A DNA stretch of 56,971 nt from a virus (taxonomy: Duplodnaviria > Caudoviricetes), in the IMG/VR virus record IMGVR_UViG_3300044630_000901, positions 1 through 56,971 of that record. One strand, written 5' to 3'. Under the pieces are notes generated by a model that saw only the letters and a program-made list of their open reading frames with translations, did not search any database and was not told the DNA's origin. Each line of letters begins with the position of its first letter. Position 1 is the stretch's first letter. A program made the translations under genes and the position numbers. Shown piece by piece: positions 23,970 to 31,428 of the stretch.

Positions 23970-24012
23970 TCGGCATGCGACAATGTCGCATGCAACAGAT
24001 TGAAGGGTATCT

Positions 24013-27000
24013 ATGTCACGCCGCCTGACCGACGAAGAAATTGCAGCGCGATACAGCCAGCAGTACCGAGTGGAAACCCCGGAAGCTGGTTTGTCGGAGT
24101 TAGGCGGCTCGGCCATAGATCGCCTGCAGGCCAAAGCTTATGGTTTGGTCGAGCCCTTGGGGCTCTCGCGTGACTACCGTCTGGCTCAAGAAGCTGAAGC
24201 TGAGCGCACATCCAATCGCTACTACGACACCAATCAGGGTGCCGTTGGCTCCTACAAAAACATCTCAGGCGTCGGTGACGTTGGTCGCTACGCAGCCGAG
24301 TTGGGGGTTCAGTCGCTCCCTGAAATTGTGCCTGTCGTTGGCGCTGGCCTTGTGGGCGGACCAGTCGCTGCTTTTGGTGTCGCAGGTCTCAGCGGTATTG
24401 GCGAAGTCATGCAGGCTCAACGCGAGCAAAGTGGTCGCACTGATTTGACGGCCATCCCTCTCGGCTTGGCCTATGGTGGCGTTGAAGCTGCCACTGGTAT
24501 CGTCGGCAAGCTGGCTGGTACTGGTATTCGCGCAGAACGTGCTGCGGCTGTTGCCAACCGTTACTTGGACAACCTAGGTGGCTTCACTGGCGGCGCAGCT
24601 CGCACAGGGGCTGCTGCTGGTCGCACTGGCTTCTCTGAGGCTGTTGGTGAAGTGGGTCAGGAGTACATCTCCAATGTAGGCCGTCTGGCTATCGACCCAC
24701 GCGTTGACCTGTTCAGCCCCGAAGCATTGAATGACTATGCTGAGTCTTTTGTTGGTGGTGGTCTGCTGGGCGGTCTGCTTGGTGGTGCTGCCGGTGGCTG
24801 GCGTCGCAGTCAGGGTTTCCGTGATTCCACTCGTGAGCGAGACCTGACCTCTTCCATGGCCGAACAAGAGCCAGAACTTCAGCGCCCACTGGATAGCCAG
24901 TTTGTTACCCAAGACCAGACTCTCGGCCTGCAGTCGTTCATCAACCAGAACGTGGGCGTAACTCGCCCCAAGCGCCGTGACTACGCAGCCCAGTTCAAGG
25001 CTGCATACGATGAGCCTACCGGCCAGTTCGTCAACGACCCAGAAACCGGCATTGAGCGCCCCCTGACAGTGGGCGAAGCCCTGCAGCGCTCGCAGGCTCC
25101 ACTGGACATGACGCAGGAAAAACCTGCTGATGCAGCAGCTACTGCTCAAGTGGTTGCCAACACAGTGCGCGACCCACGCTCGTACGAGCTGCGCGATACG
25201 TTTGGCGTCATCCCCACCCCATCTTCTTTGCAACTGTACTCAGACATTCAGGCTTCTGGTTTGCCAGTAGATTCCGATATGCTGGTAGGTGTGTGGGCGT
25301 ACGCCGGTGAAAAGCCGATGACACCCAAGCGTCTGGAAAAAGCGCAGCAGTTGCTGGATGCTGCCATCATTGAAGCTCGCAAGGAGGCACCAAGTGGCAC
25401 AGGAATTTCTACTGTACAGCAGCCTGCAGGAAGCGTGGGAGTCGGGAGCCCTGTCGTTCAAGGAGGTCTGGGAGATGCAGGACGCCCTGCTCCTGTCGCA
25501 GGAGCAGTGGTCGGAGGTGCCCCAGCAGCTGGAGCCCCACTTCAACAAGCTGGCGTTCTTCCAATCACTGCCGGAGAACCGGCTACCCCTGTAACTACGA
25601 CTGCCCCTGCAGCCGCCCCCGCGCCGGAGACTCGTTTCCGTCGTGCCCCTAGACCAATGACAGTTTTGGAAGCCGCAAATGCCGCTAAAGCCGCTCAAGC
25701 CCAGCAAACAGAAACGCAAGGACAAACGGCACCTGCCGCCGCAGGACCAGTCGTAGACGAACGCCAAGCCGTTCTGCAGCAAATCTTTGGCACCCGCGAC
25801 GGTGACATCATTTTTGACGTGGTGGGTATGGGCATGTCCGAGCCAGAAGCTGCTGCCAAGTATGGTCTGGCTCGTCAGACTATTCAAAAGATTGCTGGTG
25901 CTACCGGTGCCGAGCAGCGTGCCGCGAAGATTCAGCGTGCCAAGGCTCAAAAAGGCATTACTGACGAGCAGATCGCTACAGCGTTTCAGGTTGCCCCGCA
26001 GGAAGAACTAGGCTCCGAGGTAGAGCGCGACATTTTTGGCGCTGGTGCCGCTCAAGGTGCCATCACAGAAGGCGAGGCCATTGAAGCTGGCCTTGAGAAC
26101 ATTGTCAAGACTGCCGGGGCTGGAACCTCAGAGGTTGAAGGCTTTACCAAGCTGGACAAAGCTGTAATGACTGTGTTGGAGCGAATCGCTAGCTTGCGAG
26201 ATGCCGTGTCCAAAGCCAAGAGCGAAGCAGAACTGACGGGGCTAAAAACCAAGCTACAAGAGGCACAAGACAATTTGGCTGGCTTGACTGAAAAAGTCAA
26301 ATCCGTTGAGAAAAAAGCTCAGGGTGAAGTGCGTCGCACTGCTGGCAAAGTAACCGAACCAACTGTTGAAGGAGAAGCTGATGCCGTTCAAGTCGAAAGC
26401 CCAGCAGGGGTATCTGTTCAGCCAGAAGCCGGAACTGGCGAAAAAGTGGGCCGACAAGTACGGGGTGCCAAAAAGCCTGCCGCAGAAGGTAAAGCCCAAG
26501 TCCCAGCCAAAGTCCTCACCGAAGCCGAGCAAGCCGCCCAAGCGTGGGATGTAGTCGTTGCTGACTATCCACAGGCTCCCAAGTTTGCTGAACTGACAAA
26601 GGCTCAGCAGCAGGACTTCATTGAGTTTGGCCCCGGCAACTGGGAGCGCGGTGACGTTGAGCTTGAGCTGACCAAGTTGGCCAAGGCTGGCATGAAGTTT
26701 GGTACTGAAGCAGCACCAGCACAAGACCGCGAGCCCTACACAGCCAAACAATTGCTGGCTGAGCTCAAAGCGTTTATTCGTGCTGACATTCCTAAGCGCA
26801 AGCTGATGGTTGTGGGTAGCGTGGCTGACTTGCTGACGTCTCCAGACGCAAAAATCCGAGCTGTTGGTGCCGCGTTGCAGCTGCAAGGGGCATACGGCGT
26901 GGCCGTAGATGGTCGTGCGTTCTTGATTGCAAACCGAATCAAGCAAGGTTCTGGTCGGGCCAAGTTCATGCACGAAGTTGGTGGCCACTTGGGTCTGGAC

Positions 27001-30000
27001 AATTTGCTCACTAAGGCAGATCAGGACAAGCTGGTCAACCAGATCAAATCTTGGGCCAAGAAAGCTGACGGCTCTTTGGAAGCTGAACTGGCACTGCAAG
27101 CCTTCGAGCGTGTTGTAGCTGCCCAGACTCCTAAAGAAGACCAGCGCTCAGAACTGATTGCGTATTTCATTGAGTCGGCCATGGAGATGGGTGTTGACCC
27201 AACTGCCGCTACCGATACCAAGCTGTCCGGCCCTCTGCGCGAATGGTTCCGTACGTTGTGGGCTGCATTTAAGGTGGCTGCTCGCAAGCTGGGCATTAAG
27301 CCAGAGTCCATGACAGCACAAGACGTTGTCAACTTGGCTTACGGCGCTGCTCGTTTGGAGATCAACGGCACATGGCACGGCACTGCTGCTGCGTTCCGTA
27401 ACTTCCGCAACAAATACATCGGCTCTGGTGAGGGTGCAACCGCTTATGGCTGGGGTACTTACTTGGCCCAGCGTGTTGGTATTGCCAAGGGATACTGGTC
27501 TGCTGACGTTGACAGAAAGACTGCCAATCCAACAGCTACGTACGACGGTCGCCCACTTAAAGACATTGATAGCGAGATCGGAGTCAAAGAGCAGTTCGGT
27601 CTTGACCTAAATGAAGAAGAGCAGGCGCTCAGACTTATCCTTCCAATCCTTAATGCGAATCTGGATAATGGCGACAATGATGCGCTGCGGTCTGCCAACA
27701 TGACAATTGCCAAACGCGGGTCTGGGGCGCTGACTGGGAAACTATACAAACCAGCCTCAGACTGGCTGGACAAGAACTATTCCAAGTTCAAAGTAGTGCC
27801 CGGCAAACAGCCAGAAGGCAACTTGATGCGTGTTGACACTGCCGTGGACGACGACCGTGTGTTTAACTACGACACGTTGGTCATTAAGCAGCCAAACTAT
27901 GTGGCCGACAAGCTCATGGAGCTGCTTGACCCTGTTGCTGACGAGATTCTGGATCGCACCAACAAAGACGTTGAAGAGCTGACTGGCAGAGACCTGATCG
28001 GCACTGGCGAGAACGACCTTGGGTTGCTCAGCAACCTCATCATGGATGACGCCATTTCTTTGCCAGCTGGCCAAGACAAGCAGTTCGATGAAGCTGTACG
28101 CCAAGGTAAATTCCACGAAGCGGCCAGCCACTTCTTGCGTGCATCTGGCATTCAAGGCATTAAGTTTTACGACGCCCGTAGTAGAGGCTCTGCTTCCACA
28201 GCAATCTCATTTGACGGTAAGACTTATAACCGGGACGAGCTGCGCGACAAATCACGTGAGGCTAGCCAAGCAAACGACGCCGCCAAGACAATGAAGTTTC
28301 TGATGCTGCGCGATATTCTGCGCAACGGCGTGGACGATGTGATGGCAAGCCTAGAGGAAAAAGTCTCTAAACAGGCCGACAGCTATGAGCAAATTTACCT
28401 TGATTCAGCTGCACGGTACAACGTTAAAGTAAACCCTGCCGAAGAGCGAGCACGTGCTGAAAAAGAAGCCAATGAGGATTTTGCTGGCCAACAGCTGGCA
28501 TGGCTCAAAGCCAATAAGAAACTCATCTCCATTGAGCAACTGCCAAAGCTGCGTAACTTAATCATCTTTGATGACAAGGACATCTTCCGTGTGGGTGGAG
28601 AAGCTGCTGCTGATCGCCAGCGCATGAAGTTTGGTAAGAACGCCCCGACGAAAGGGCTGATCGACCGCAACATTGCCAAGCTGCCAAAGCAGTCCCAACA
28701 GCCAGTCAAGCGCGTGGCTGAAGCTCTTGGTGATCTTGGCGGCAAGTACCTTGACTACGCCGTCTTTACAAACGATCTGGTCAAGCGTGCTCAGGCTCTG
28801 GGTCTGGGCGCTGCCAAGACTTTCTCCGACCGCCTTGCTGCACGCAACGCCAAGGTCAGTGAGGAAGAGCGCAAGATCGAAAAGATCGCTGATGGCTACG
28901 CTCTGATCGAGGACGCCAACAAAGGCTCCGGCCCCGGCTCGGTCAACGAGTTCTTGTTTGAGTCCACCCGCACAGGTAAGTGGGGCTATGGCAAGTACCG
29001 CGATGCCAAGATGGGTGCTGCGTTCGATGCGTTGGGCCCCAAGGCTCAGCAGTTCGTCAAAGACGTGTTTGCCCATGGCGATGCCATGCTGTCCAACAAG
29101 AAGCGCATTGTGCTGAACGCCACCAACTCTGAGTACGACGCCATGATTAAGGCAGCTCAGGACGATGGCGACACCCAGACAGAAGCTAAGCTCAAGGCCG
29201 AGAAAGCCGCTACGCTCAAGCGCTTCCAGACACTGTTCCGCATCCGTGAGGGTGTGCCCTACGCGCCAATCAAGCGTACTGGTGCCTATGTGGTGATCGG
29301 TGAGTCTGATGCGTACAAAGCTGCCAAGGCCAAGAACGACACAGCGACCGTCAAGAAGCTGGAGTCTGACCCAGACCACTACCATGTGTCGTTCGTGGAC
29401 ACCAAACTGCAAGCCCGTAACCTGAGCGACAAGCTGTCCGATCAGGGTGTGTTTGTTGAGCCGCAGATTGTCAAGCGCTCGGAGTCCTTTGACGAGGCTT
29501 TCAGTGGTGAGGCCATGCTGCCTGCCCTGACCAAGATGCGTGCCGCTGTGGACCGTCGTGCCCAAGACGCCAACGGCAAGAAAGACCCATCCGCTGGCAA
29601 GCTGCTGAACATCATCAACCAGTTGTACTTGGAGGCGTTGGCTGAGGGTAGTGCCCGCAAGTCTGAAATGCGTCGCCGTGGTGTGGCCGGTGAAGTGGAC
29701 ATGCTCCAGTCGTTTACCCAGCAAGGCCGTGCCGATGCCAACTTCTTGGCCAGCGTTGAGTATGAGCCGAAGATTCAGGATGCCTTGCAGCAGATGCGTA
29801 ACCAGTCCCGCACTGGCGACCGTGAGCGCAAGTCCGAAATCTTTGATGAGCTGACCCAGCGTTACGCTGACTCGTTGGAGCCAAAGAACAATCCGTTCAT
29901 CAACGGCCTGACCAACATGGCATCCAAGTTCTTCTTGGCTTCCAGCCCCGGCTACTACCTGCAGAACTTGACTCAGCCATTCATGATGTCCCTGCCTGCC

Positions 30001-31428
30001 ATGGCTGGTCGTCACGACTACACCAAAGCCGCTGCTGAGCTGGCCAAGGCGTACACCGAGCTGGGCCCACTGTTCAAAGACGTGAAGCTGTTCGACCAGC
30101 AGTTTGACTTCTCCAAGGTTCCAGCAGACGTGCGTGCCGCTATCAACGACTTGGTCAACCAAGGCAAGATCGACATTGGTCTGGCCACTGAGATCAACGA
30201 GTACAAGGTAGACGCCGATGGAAAACTCAGCCAGTTTGCACAGCGCCTGAACAAAGGCATGCGTATGGCCGTCCAGAAAGTGGAAGCTACCAACCGCTTG
30301 TCTACGGCCATTGCTGCGTACCGCTTGGAGTTTGAGCGGGCCAAGAACGACCCAAAGATTGCAGACCCTAAAGCTGCAGCCACGCAGTACGCTGCTGACA
30401 TTCTGACTGACACCCATGGTGACTACACCGCCTTCAACGCTCCTCGTGCGTTTAACACCCAGTGGGGCAAGGTGGCTTTGCAGTTCCGCAAGTTCCAGTT
30501 GATTCAGATCGCGTTCTATGCCAAGTTGTTCCGCGACTTAGGGCGGACACCCGAAGAGCGTGCTGTGGCAATGAAGACTCTGGCCTACTCGCTGAGCCAC
30601 ACTGCTGTGTTCGCTGGCATGATGGGCTTGCCCGGCTACGCTGCCATCTCTGCTATCTTGGGCTTCTTCGGTGACGAGGATGAGCCATACGACCTGACTG
30701 CTGAGATGCGCAAGGCGCTTGGCCCAGAGTGGGCTGACATGATTATGCGCGGAGCCCCCACCGTTGTTGGTATGGACTTGTCCGGCAAGATTGGCTCCGG
30801 CAACATGCTGTCCATCATGCCGTTTAGCGACGCTGACTTGACTACCACTTCAGGCCAAGCGGAAGCTGTCGGTACGTTCTTCGGTGGCGCTGCATTGGGT
30901 ATGACATCGCGTGTTGCCGACGGCCTGCTGCTCATGCTCAAAGGCGACTACTACAAGGGCCTCGAGCGCGTTATGCCAAAGGGCGTGTCTGACGCCCTCA
31001 AGGCTGGCCGACAAGGTGCCGAAGGTATGACCCGCCGCAACGGTGATGTGATCTTGCCTGACAACGATATTGGTGCAATCGACACAGTGCTGACTGCATT
31101 GGGTGTGCCAGCCGTGAAGCAGGCTGTTACCTACGAGCGTCAAAACCGTATGAACGACATCACCAAGAACTTCAGCGACCGCACCACGCGCATCAAGAAC
31201 GACTACGCCAAGGCTGTCCGTGAAAAAGACACTGAAGGCATGGCCGAAGCCCGAACTGCATGGACAAAACTGCAGCAGGCACGCCAACGTAACGGCCTCA
31301 AACCTCAGCCAGTGTCAACACTGCTGAAAGCCCCGCAGGAGCAGAAGGCTCGGGAGCAGCGCACCGTGGGCGGTGTGGCGTACCGCGAAGGCCAGAAGAA
31401 ACTGGCAGAATCAGTGGCTGAGAATTAA
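24013..31428 (+). CDS. Giant internal virion 'polyvalent' protein (metallopeptidase-like, ADP-ribosyltransferase-like and PLxRFG-like domains)
   Basis: 2471 aa; Gly-rich hydrophobic N-terminus, 'FMHEVGGHLG', 'WHGT...IGSGEG..AYGWGTY...GIQGIKFYD...NLIIFDD', 'YAPIKRTGAYVV'. Confidence 0.75.
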   Translation: MSRRLTDEEIAARYSQQYRVETPEAGLSELGGSAIDRLQAKAYGLVEPLGLSRDYRLAQEAEAERTSNRYYDTNQGAVGSYKNISGVGDVGRYAAELGVQSLPEIVPVVGAGLVGGPVAAFGVAGLSGIGEVMQAQREQSGRTDLTAIPLGLAYGGVEAATGIVGKLAGTGIRAERAAAVANRYLDNLGGFTGGAARTGAAAGRTGFSEAVGEVGQEYISNVGRLAIDPRVDLFSPEALNDYAESFVGGGLLGGLLGGAAGGWRRSQGFRDSTRERDLTSSMAEQEPELQRPLDSQFVTQDQTLGLQSFINQNVGVTRPKRRDYAAQFKAAYDEPTGQFVNDPETGIERPLTVGEALQRSQAPLDMTQEKPADAAATAQVVANTVRDPRSYELRDTFGVIPTPSSLQLYSDIQASGLPVDSDMLVGVWAYAGEKPMTPKRLEKAQQLLDAAIIEARKEAPSGTGISTVQQPAGSVGVGSPVVQGGLGDAGRPAPVAGAVVGGAPAAGAPLQQAGVLPITAGEPATPVTTTAPAAAPAPETRFRRAPRPMTVLEAANAAKAAQAQQTETQGQTAPAAAGPVVDERQAVLQQIFGTRDGDIIFDVVGMGMSEPEAAAKYGLARQTIQKIAGATGAEQRAAKIQRAKAQKGITDEQIATAFQVAPQEELGSEVERDIFGAGAAQGAITEGEAIEAGLENIVKTAGAGTSEVEGFTKLDKAVMTVLERIASLRDAVSKAKSEAELTGLKTKLQEAQDNLAGLTEKVKSVEKKAQGEVRRTAGKVTEPTVEGEADAVQVESPAGVSVQPEAGTGEKVGRQVRGAKKPAAEGKAQVPAKVLTEAEQAAQAWDVVVADYPQAPKFAELTKAQQQDFIEFGPGNWERGDVELELTKLAKAGMKFGTEAAPAQDREPYTAKQLLAELKAFIRADIPKRKLMVVGSVADLLTSPDAKIRAVGAALQLQGAYGVAVDGRAFLIANRIKQGSGRAKFMHEVGGHLGLDNLLTKADQDKLVNQIKSWAKKADGSLEAELALQAFERVVAAQTPKEDQRSELIAYFIESAMEMGVDPTAATDTKLSGPLREWFRTLWAAFKVAARKLGIKPESMTAQDVVNLAYGAARLEINGTWHGTAAAFRNFRNKYIGSGEGATAYGWGTYLAQRVGIAKGYWSADVDRKTANPTATYDGRPLKDIDSEIGVKEQFGLDLNEEEQALRLILPILNANLDNGDNDALRSANMTIAKRGSGALTGKLYKPASDWLDKNYSKFKVVPGKQPEGNLMRVDTAVDDDRVFNYDTLVIKQPNYVADKLMELLDPVADEILDRTNKDVEELTGRDLIGTGENDLGLLSNLIMDDAISLPAGQDKQFDEAVRQGKFHEAASHFLRASGIQGIKFYDARSRGSASTAISFDGKTYNRDELRDKSREASQANDAAKTMKFLMLRDILRNGVDDVMASLEEKVSKQADSYEQIYLDSAARYNVKVNPAEERARAEKEANEDFAGQQLAWLKANKKLISIEQLPKLRNLIIFDDKDIFRVGGEAAADRQRMKFGKNAPTKGLIDRNIAKLPKQSQQPVKRVAEALGDLGGKYLDYAVFTNDLVKRAQALGLGAAKTFSDRLAARNAKVSEEERKIEKIADGYALIEDANKGSGPGSVNEFLFESTRTGKWGYGKYRDAKMGAAFDALGPKAQQFVKDVFAHGDAMLSNKKRIVLNATNSEYDAMIKAAQDDGDTQTEAKLKAEKAATLKRFQTLFRIREGVPYAPIKRTGAYVVIGESDAYKAAKAKNDTATVKKLESDPDHYHVSFVDTKLQARNLSDKLSDQGVFVEPQIVKRSESFDEAFSGEAMLPALTKMRAAVDRRAQDANGKKDPSAGKLLNIINQLYLEALAEGSARKSEMRRRGVAGEVDMLQSFTQQGRADANFLASVEYEPKIQDALQQMRNQSRTGDRERKSEIFDELTQRYADSLEPKNNPFINGLTNMASKFFLASSPGYYLQNLTQPFMMSLPAMAGRHDYTKAAAELAKAYTELGPLFKDVKLFDQQFDFSKVPADVRAAINDLVNQGKIDIGLATEINEYKVDADGKLSQFAQRLNKGMRMAVQKVEATNRLSTAIAAYRLEFERAKNDPKIADPKAAATQYAADILTDTHGDYTAFNAPRAFNTQWGKVALQFRKFQLIQIAFYAKLFRDLGRTPEERAVAMKTLAYSLSHTAVFAGMMGLPGYAAISAILGFFGDEDEPYDLTAEMRKALGPEWADMIMRGAPTVVGMDLSGKIGSGNMLSIMPFSDADLTTTSGQAEAVGTFFGGAALGMTSRVADGLLLMLKGDYYKGLERVMPKGVSDALKAGRQGAEGMTRRNGDVILPDNDIGAIDTVLTALGVPAVKQAVTYERQNRMNDITKNFSDRTTRIKNDYAKAVREKDTEGMAEARTAWTKLQQARQRNGLKPQPVSTLLKAPQEQKAREQRTVGGVAYREGQKKLAESVAEN
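25394..25594 (+). CDS. Overprinted gene (+1 frame) inside the giant gene; 66-aa acidic protein
   Basis: AAGGAGG (25381-25387), 6 nt, GTG start; the host frame turns into low-complexity G/A/P/V sequence here. Confidence 0.6.
   Translation: MAQEFLLYSSLQEAWESGALSFKEVWEMQDALLLSQEQWSEVPQQLEPHFNKLAFFQSLPENRLPL
26381..26554 (+). CDS. Overprinted gene (+1 frame) inside the giant gene; 57-aa basic protein MPFKSKAQ...
   Basis: AAGGAG SD, 6 nt, ATG; MPFKSKAQQGYLFSQKPELAKKW resembles small phage proteins I recall as stand-alone genes. Confidence 0.7.
   Translation: MPFKSKAQQGYLFSQKPELAKKWADKYGVPKSLPQKVKPKSQPKSSPKPSKPPKRGM

Follow-up and report, generated by a model that had tools for sequence, protein, structure and literature searches.

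Genes nested out of frame within other genes are textbook material for the tiny viruses and for the spanins. Rz1, an o-spanin embedded in lambda Rz, and 18.7, embedded in T7 18.5, are small +1-frame genes with a start of their own, and both products of each pair are functional. In phiX174, B lies within A, E lies within D, and K is overprinted as well, an arrangement explained by the limits on genome size in genomes of 4-6 kb. A different use of a second frame is known from lambda G/GT and T7 10A/10B, where programmed frameshifting yields fusions that share an N-terminus. Within the large genes of tailed phage, gene callers forbid out-of-frame nested genes, and such genes are therefore invisible in annotation. 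Here we describe what is very probably a gene of this kind in IMG/VR virus record IMGVR_UViG_3300044630_000901, a record of 56,971 bases, estimated to be about 98% complete, that was analysed over its whole length and is called the window below. Judged from sequence, positions 25394..25594 of the window, referred to as nested gene 1, would be a genuine, separately translated gene overprinted in the gene of a giant ejection protein.

Start signals of nested gene 1 and its distribution among relatives

A Shine-Dalgarno (SD)-like AAGGAGG (25381..25387, plus strand) is followed in the window, after a spacer of 6 nucleotides (caccaa), by a GTG (25394-25396) that opens 66 codons ending at a TAA (25592-25594). 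The open reading frame (ORF) of nested gene 1 (25394..25594, plus strand) lies wholly within the giant ORF 24013..31428, in its +1 frame. From stop to stop the nested frame is open over 25322..25594, and the ORF counted from an upstream ATG spans 25358..25594; no internal promoter-like site was found. An earlier, sequence-only reading of the window had described the AAGGAGG, the 6 nucleotides, the GTG and the 66-codon +1 ORF exactly, and translation returns the peptide that it listed. That peptide starts MAQEFLLYSS and has neither a cysteine nor a hydrophobic N-terminus.

Relatives were collected in two samples. With the N-terminal 900 residues of the main-frame protein as query, 18 loci on 17 viral contigs were found, at 25-94% identity. 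The sequence-only reading had named +1-frame stops and loss of the SD or start in close homologues as the outcome that would speak against a gene; among these contigs, found through the giant protein alone, the +1 ORF is intact in 16 of 17 with the SD and start conserved, and one locus, L015, lacks the region. A codon alignment was made of the window and 14 of the loci, leaving out one that covers the downstream part only (L014), a partial locus at a contig end (L017), one that is too distant (L018) and, as the region is absent, L015; L017 and L018 share contigs with L050 and L051, both of which carry the nested gene. All 14 aligned loci have an open +1 frame that runs to the shared stop codon, and the peptides it encodes resemble one another closely.

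The other sample was drawn with a profile of 15 nested peptides (A1) and with sub-alignments of more distant members (A5, A6, A7 and A9), and comprises 58 loci: 40 viral, one on a contig binned in a metagenome-assembled genome, seven on metagenome contigs and 10 further viral. All 58 have the ORF inside a long ORF (599-1820 residues within the fetched stretch), always in the +1 frame relative to it, and the main-frame text is again rich in G, A, P, V, T and S. No free-standing copy of nested gene 1 was found among the 58 contexts sampled, and each of the four carrier records searched has one copy. The gene's place is always behind an N-terminal module, some 460-580 residues from the beginning of the giant ORF, and the peptide is 66-70 residues long in 49 of 50 unique sequences. 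At L045:2501-2659 an in-frame deletion of 13 codons has removed most of helix 2 and leaves a peptide of 53 residues, and this copy may be defective.

A start codon stands at the conserved place in 57 of the 58 sequences (ATG in 28, GTG in 26, TTG in 3), the exception, L049, being the same contig as L006, which has GTG. An SD core of at least 4 nucleotides (GGAG, AGGA or GAGG) is common among the homologues: 46 of the 50 unique sequences have one 5-7 nucleotides ahead of the start. Three upstream contexts with no relation to one another occur among close relatives, and each retains an SD and a start, namely AAGGAGG, 6 nucleotides and GTG; AAGGAG, 5 nucleotides and GTG; and AAGGAG or GGGAG, 6 nucleotides and an ATG two codons farther upstream; further contexts occur among distant relatives. 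In 8 of the 15 close sequences the open frame offers no ATG, GTG or TTG other than the conserved start before the conserved core begins. An in-frame stop immediately precedes the ATG in five loci (L052, L057, L061, L064 and L065) and lies within 8 codons before the start in 10 more, making 15 in all. Nested gene 1 thereby appears to possess its own translation initiation signals. Ribosomes on the giant gene's late mRNA would initiate internally, at the SD and GTG, and the small protein would be made separately rather than as a frameshift fusion with the giant protein.

Short contigs of high depth that cover just nested gene 1 and a second nested gene, described below, were seen in two wastewater runs (X15 and X16, labelled RNA-Seq cDNA and probably DNA). 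One of these contigs, of 205 letters, spans only 25394-25598, and the other island is 26370-26461. Contigs this short would result if the islands, as mosaic joints, were all that many phage variants had in common and the flanking modules differed. A search for sequencing runs listed none of RNA that holds the region, and the four runs to which the window was compared (X4, X7, X15 and X16) gave contigs only, which are uninformative about expression.

Frame-specific selection

Variation across the 15 aligned sequences changes its phase over nested gene 1. Mean pairwise diversity at main-frame positions 1, 2 and 3 is 0.267, 0.146 and 0.141 over codons 462-527, compared with about 0.45, 0.40 and 0.62 in every upstream 66-codon block and about 0.3, 0.25 and 0.5 downstream. 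In a 20-codon sliding window the trough extends from about codon 461 to about codon 528, its edges coinciding with the ORF borders, and position 1 is the most variable inside it; the same inverted pattern (0.09, 0.042 and 0.027) is found in a distant subgroup, L052-L059.

The sequence-only reading had proposed frame-specific ratios of nonsynonymous to synonymous substitution (dN/dS) in homologues as a check, and these agree with it. By NG86, dN/dS in the overlap is 0.27 for the +1 frame, 1.29 for the main frame and 1.49 for the +2 frame, and the first two are reversed in the flanks, where the values are 0.97-1.11 for the +1 frame, 0.25-0.26 for the main frame and 1.29-1.30 for the +2 frame. 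An OLGenie-style split, in which the effect in the other frame is held fixed, gives a +1-frame pNN/pNS of 0.31 in the overlap and 0.76-0.88 in the flanks; for the main-frame pNN/pSN the corresponding values are 0.81 and 0.41-0.61. Fitch counting on a tree of the 50 unique sequences yields minimum numbers of 356, 280 and 516 changes at nested positions 1, 2 and 3 (chi-square p 4e-17). Mean amino-acid identity is 0.52 in the nested frame versus 0.39 in the main frame, and the nested value is the higher in 1199 of 1225 pairs. These alignments point to purifying selection on the nested frame.

Across nested gene 1 the main frame reads as a G/A/P/V linker (25393..25596, plus strand; main-frame codons 461-528), in effect the -1-frame shadow of nested gene 1. 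This linker, also described in the sequence-only reading, is seen both in the window and in the 50 unique homologues, where its composition is 25% G, 16% A, 12.5% V and 11% P. None of the 50 sequences has a main-frame stop over the interval, whereas only 12% of trials leave the main frame free of stops when the nested peptide is recoded at random with synonymous codons; both frames are thus maintained, which amounts to true dual coding. The linker's main frame is kept open and is nearly neutral, or nearly unconstrained, in other respects.

Codon usage likewise differs between the frames. The nested frame correlates with the phage's ordinary genes at r 0.42 and the main frame over the overlap at r 0.10; for 66-codon windows, real genes read in frame have a mean of 0.58 and a 5th percentile of 0.33, and the +1-frame background has a mean of 0.02 and a 95th percentile of 0.21. 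The nested frame is thus within the range of real genes, and the main frame over the overlap resembles a non-coding frame. GC content at codon positions 1, 2 and 3 is 0.67, 0.31 and 0.85 in the nested frame and 0.63, 0.44 and 0.61 in the rest of the giant gene.

Protein family and predicted fold

The predicted product of nested gene 1 is an acidic protein of 7.8 kDa, with a pI of 4.3 and a net charge of -7. An exhaustive profile search places it in a family of 72 clusters (at 50% identity) at E<=1e-3, 17 of them at E<=1e-10, with lengths nearly all of 64-71 residues and predicted proteins that start MSA or MA, members beginning MSAxQ. The consensus reads MSAxxxxLxxxLxxAVxxGALSLxEAWxLQDxxLL...P..L.P...RL.L......NxLPx, and length and fold are kept down to 26-35% identity. 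The family is uniformly acidic (median pI 4.4, median net charge -7), and 65 of 102 peptides have a hydrophobic-Pro-hydrophobic C-terminus. A database clustered at 90% identity gave 21 matches, mostly 66-residue "hypothetical proteins" on contigs of 0.5-7.7 kb; on contigs so short the giant ORF is cut, so a gene caller could pick the small ORF. An Rz1-type o-spanin was considered as the product and rejected, there being no signal peptide with a lipobox cysteine in the window peptide and no cysteine at all in 83 of the 102 family members.

AlphaFold2 models the product as three helices, at residues 9-17, 22-34 and 44-57. The pLDDT is 72.9 with 38 sequences and 83.6 (pTM 0.61) with 69, and all five models made with 69 sequences fall between 80.7 and 83.6. 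Among the invariant residues, a Gly terminates helix 1, helix 2 opens with an S/T-x-x-E capping box and a Pro precedes helix 3; all of these may be structural. Neither Pfam nor PHROG has a match for the window peptide, and a scan of 69 family members against both gave no recurring family, each weak family being matched by one member. A PDB profile search with the nested peptide reached a best E of 0.4, Foldseek against PDB and BFVD with both models returned nothing at E<=0.001, a wide VIA-align search with both models gave generic three-helix matches (best Z 4.9 and 4.2), and the ESM Atlas matched only unnamed 'hypothetical' clusters. Single-protein viral scans with P0044, P0028 and P0085 found nothing. 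The nested product is accordingly described here as a member of an uncharacterised acidic family of about 66-68 residues with a confidently predicted three-helix fold.

Alternative explanations

Several observations weigh against the reading of 25394..25594 as a separately translated gene, or against a tie between its function and the giant protein. When main-frame residues are fixed and synonymous codons are redrawn from the giant gene's own usage, the +1 frame is open in 43% of 20,000 redraws, and the giant gene contains nine stop-free +1 runs of at least 66 codons. The openness of a single sequence is therefore at chance, and the signal beyond chance comes only from the relatives and from codon usage. 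The openness of the 58 peptide-found loci holds partly by construction, as these loci were chosen by peptide; the pairwise statistics re-use shared ancestry; and the dN/dS estimators are biased or approximate in overlaps, so that the contrast with the flanks is what counts. L015 has a shorter linker that lacks nested gene 1, and a profile search of its whole 51-kb record (G001) found no copy, yet its giant gene retains the N-terminal module, the second nested gene and the PLxRFG end (57% identity); nested gene 1 would by this example be dispensable or replaceable, and losable. The peptides of L003 and L009 are identical in different upstream contexts, and peptide variants do not track the adjacent upstream segment. 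The phages concerned are uncultured, and the nested peptide has no match in 50,697 cultured phage records, where tblastn with three peptides of the family turned up a single match, at E 0.1, and blastn of 24900-26100 none. Finally, only position ties the function of the nested gene to the giant protein.

The chance openness of the frame is what would be expected if there were no gene here, and the island were a nucleotide-conserved joint between mosaic modules, spread recently by recombination, whose +1 ORF is an accident of G/A/P/V codons. The position of the island between modules that are swapped among relatives suits this explanation, as does the 205-letter wastewater contig confined to it. 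Recent spread would, however, leave main-frame position 3 the most variable, whereas variation is greatest at position 1 and smallest at position 3. Nor does a joint account for an SD and start that are re-created in unrelated upstream sequences, including the ATG two codons upstream with an SD of its own, for a family that keeps its length and fold to 26-35% identity, or for gene-like codon usage in the nested frame only, and we consider it improbable. A programmed frameshift, by which a truncated N-terminus of the giant protein would be fused to the 66 residues with the SD-like site as stimulator, is less probable still. The window has 24 open +1-frame codons ahead of the GTG, and SD-like sites do stimulate frameshifting in prfB and dnaX, but such a fusion would be blocked in five loci by a stop immediately preceding the ATG and in 10 others by one no more than 8 codons away, the conserved unit begins at the start codon (with ATG, GTG and TTG interchanging, and family proteins that begin MSA or MA), and the aligned upstream sequences have no conserved slippery run.

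Two further explanations keep a constrained element at this place and have next to nothing to recommend them once the pattern of variation is considered. An antisense gene is conceivable in that a minus-strand ORF of 236 residues (25240..25950) exists in the window and its third codon positions coincide with those of the nested frame. Over the interval, half of the unique sequences (25 of 50) break this ORF with up to five stops each, the diversity trough ends at the borders of the sense ORF and not at 25240 or 25950, and its position 2 would have to vary more than its position 1 (356 versus 280 changes). Conservation of synonymous sites is also a signature of RNA elements, and a structure or regulatory site in the giant mRNA might produce it; however, 24000-27000 has no Rfam match at E<=1, the fold energy equals that of shuffles (z 0.06), and three-periodic substitutions with amino-acid conservation at 26-35% identity are properties of coding sequence. 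The separately translated, overprinted gene therefore remains the preferred reading, and the inference of the sequence-only reading that selection acts on the alternative frame is borne out by the start signals, the frame-switched selection, the deep family and the fold; the chaperone or inhibitor role that it attached to the gene gained no such support.

The giant protein and a second nested gene

The host gene (24013..31428, plus strand) encodes 2471 residues and is labelled an internal-virion/ejection 'polyvalent' protein, with a PLxRFG/DarB-like C-terminal domain at residues 1855-2466 that matches phrog_10089 (E 1.5e-57). Its last 610 residues have tblastn matches to annotated PLxRFG/DarB-like genes in 46 phage records. 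The gene is flanked upstream by those for an internal virion protein (phrog_511) and a virion structural protein, with terminase, portal and major head protein farther upstream, and DNA polymerase and primase/helicase lie on the other strand. Because of the PLxRFG/DarB-like end and the virion-gene neighbours, the ejection-protein label is fair. A PDB sequence search with the giant protein gave nothing useful. A match to ART-PolyVal (PF18760) at 27373-27501, residues about 1121-1163, is sub-threshold (E 0.013; 16.7 bits against a cut-off of 31.2). A weak HTH_23-like match occurs at residues 607-627, and an antisense ORF of 619 codons (28558..30417, minus strand) lies within the giant gene; at this G+C content, frames that do not code often contain long ORFs.

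In carriers of the nested gene the giant ORF can be as long as 3393 codons (the L076 record, G005) or 2367 codons (the L051 record, G003). The PLxRFG C-terminal domain was found in three of five records searched, one of the three being that of L015, which lacks nested gene 1; in two carrier records, G004 and G006, a single-sequence search found no PLxRFG-type end. The giant proteins are strongly mosaic: 7 of 16 distant carriers share any BLAST-level segment with the window protein, and residues 909-1171, the stretch with the ART-PolyVal hint, are matched by L068 only, one of 16 distant loci.

The second putative nested gene, nested gene 2 (26381..26554, plus strand), lies 800 bases downstream of nested gene 1, to which it is unrelated, and is again in the +1 frame of the giant gene, with an ATG, 57 codons and its own AAGGAG (26369-26374) at a spacing of 6 nucleotides. 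Its conserved product is basic (pI 10.5), 57 residues long, begins MPFKSKAQQGYLFSQKP and has no Pfam family. By tblastn the gene is present in about 45 fetched loci, including L015, and its SD and ATG are kept in different upstream contexts. It coincides with a second sharp trough in diversity, in which the main-frame third position falls to 0.02-0.06 and position 1 is the most variable. As far as sequence can indicate, nested gene 2 strengthens the picture of overprinting.

Possible function and origin

The gene is never found outside a giant gene and always sits about 460-580 residues in, behind the N-terminal module, and for this reason a role beside the giant protein in the virion-interior or ejection pathway, as an assembly or packaging helper or a co-packaged factor made in cis with that protein, is the guess that we favour, tentatively and well short of calling it probable. 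An unlikelier guess is a small acidic inhibitor of a host target, made late or co-ejected. Predicted complexes of the peptide with giant-protein residues 1-460 or 528-790 scored 0.00, which gives no answer and is no evidence either way. The suggestion, made in the sequence-only reading, that the product neutralises a peptidase or ART domain of the giant protein is disfavoured: nested gene 1 is kept where BLAST shows no relation between the downstream modules, the ART match does not reach the Pfam cut-off, and L015 keeps the giant gene and its PLxRFG end without nested gene 1. As the downstream modules vary among carriers, a specific antidote to one downstream enzymatic module would be unlikely.

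Which of the two frames is the older is a separate question. By codon usage, GC pattern, fold and conservation, it is the nested frame that resembles a native gene, with the linker as its shadow. Read-through fusion of neighbouring module genes across a small gene would fit this, but strong selection on the nested frame could also give a native-looking picture. A rather doubtful scenario is that the small gene came first, and that giant genes were assembled by read-through across small genes lying between module genes, their linkers being the -1-frame shadows of small genes that still function, their nested genes serving as shuffling joints, and the products made in cis assisting the folding, packaging or ejection of the giant protein. 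If so, the window would hold two such shadowed genes, one acidic and one basic. The family is in any case a clean natural system for asking which frame of an overlap is older, and codon usage points to the nested one.

On the reading preferred here, a whole family of 72 clusters would be known only as a shadow inside giant ejection or polyvalent genes, and its product would be a new mini-protein with a confidently predicted fold, probably made late in infection, and a candidate for an assembly helper or a factor directed at the host. Dual coding could then occur in the low-complexity linkers of giant phage proteins, which should be neither dismissed nor freely engineered, and mosaic module exchange in giant genes would pivot on conserved nested genes.

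Comparison with known systems

A literature search, which did not cover supplements, found no report of nested genes in polyvalent, PLxRFG or ejection-protein genes. The closest described host genes are those of the polyvalent DarB-like proteins (Iyer et al. 2017; PMC5512222). The host gene here is of that kind, being giant, multi-module and virion-associated with a PLxRFG/DarB-like end, and its product gives a weak, sub-threshold ART-PolyVal hint; the main text of that paper contains neither 'overlapping' nor 'linker' and describes no nested genes.

With respect to the nested gene itself, the arrangement resembles that of Rz1, in that nested gene 1 also lies wholly inside a larger phage gene of the same strand, in the +1 frame, with what reads as a start of its own. 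Unlike Rz1, a secreted lipoprotein that has a signal peptide and a lipobox cysteine and binds the product of its host gene, the nested peptide is cytoplasmic-looking, acidic and free of cysteine, and unlike the Rz/Rz1 pair, the host here is a virion protein of 2471 residues whose overlapped part is a nearly unconstrained linker. The frameshift products of lambda G/GT and T7 10A/10B also use a second frame within a late structural gene, but at this locus the upstream stops, conserved SD and conserved start would indicate separate initiation. The likeness to phiX174 is one of out-of-frame dual coding in which one frame is well conserved and the other is compositionally odd or disordered; the differences are that this phage has 57 kb, and that the structured, gene-like frame is the small nested one, with the disordered text falling in the large host gene.

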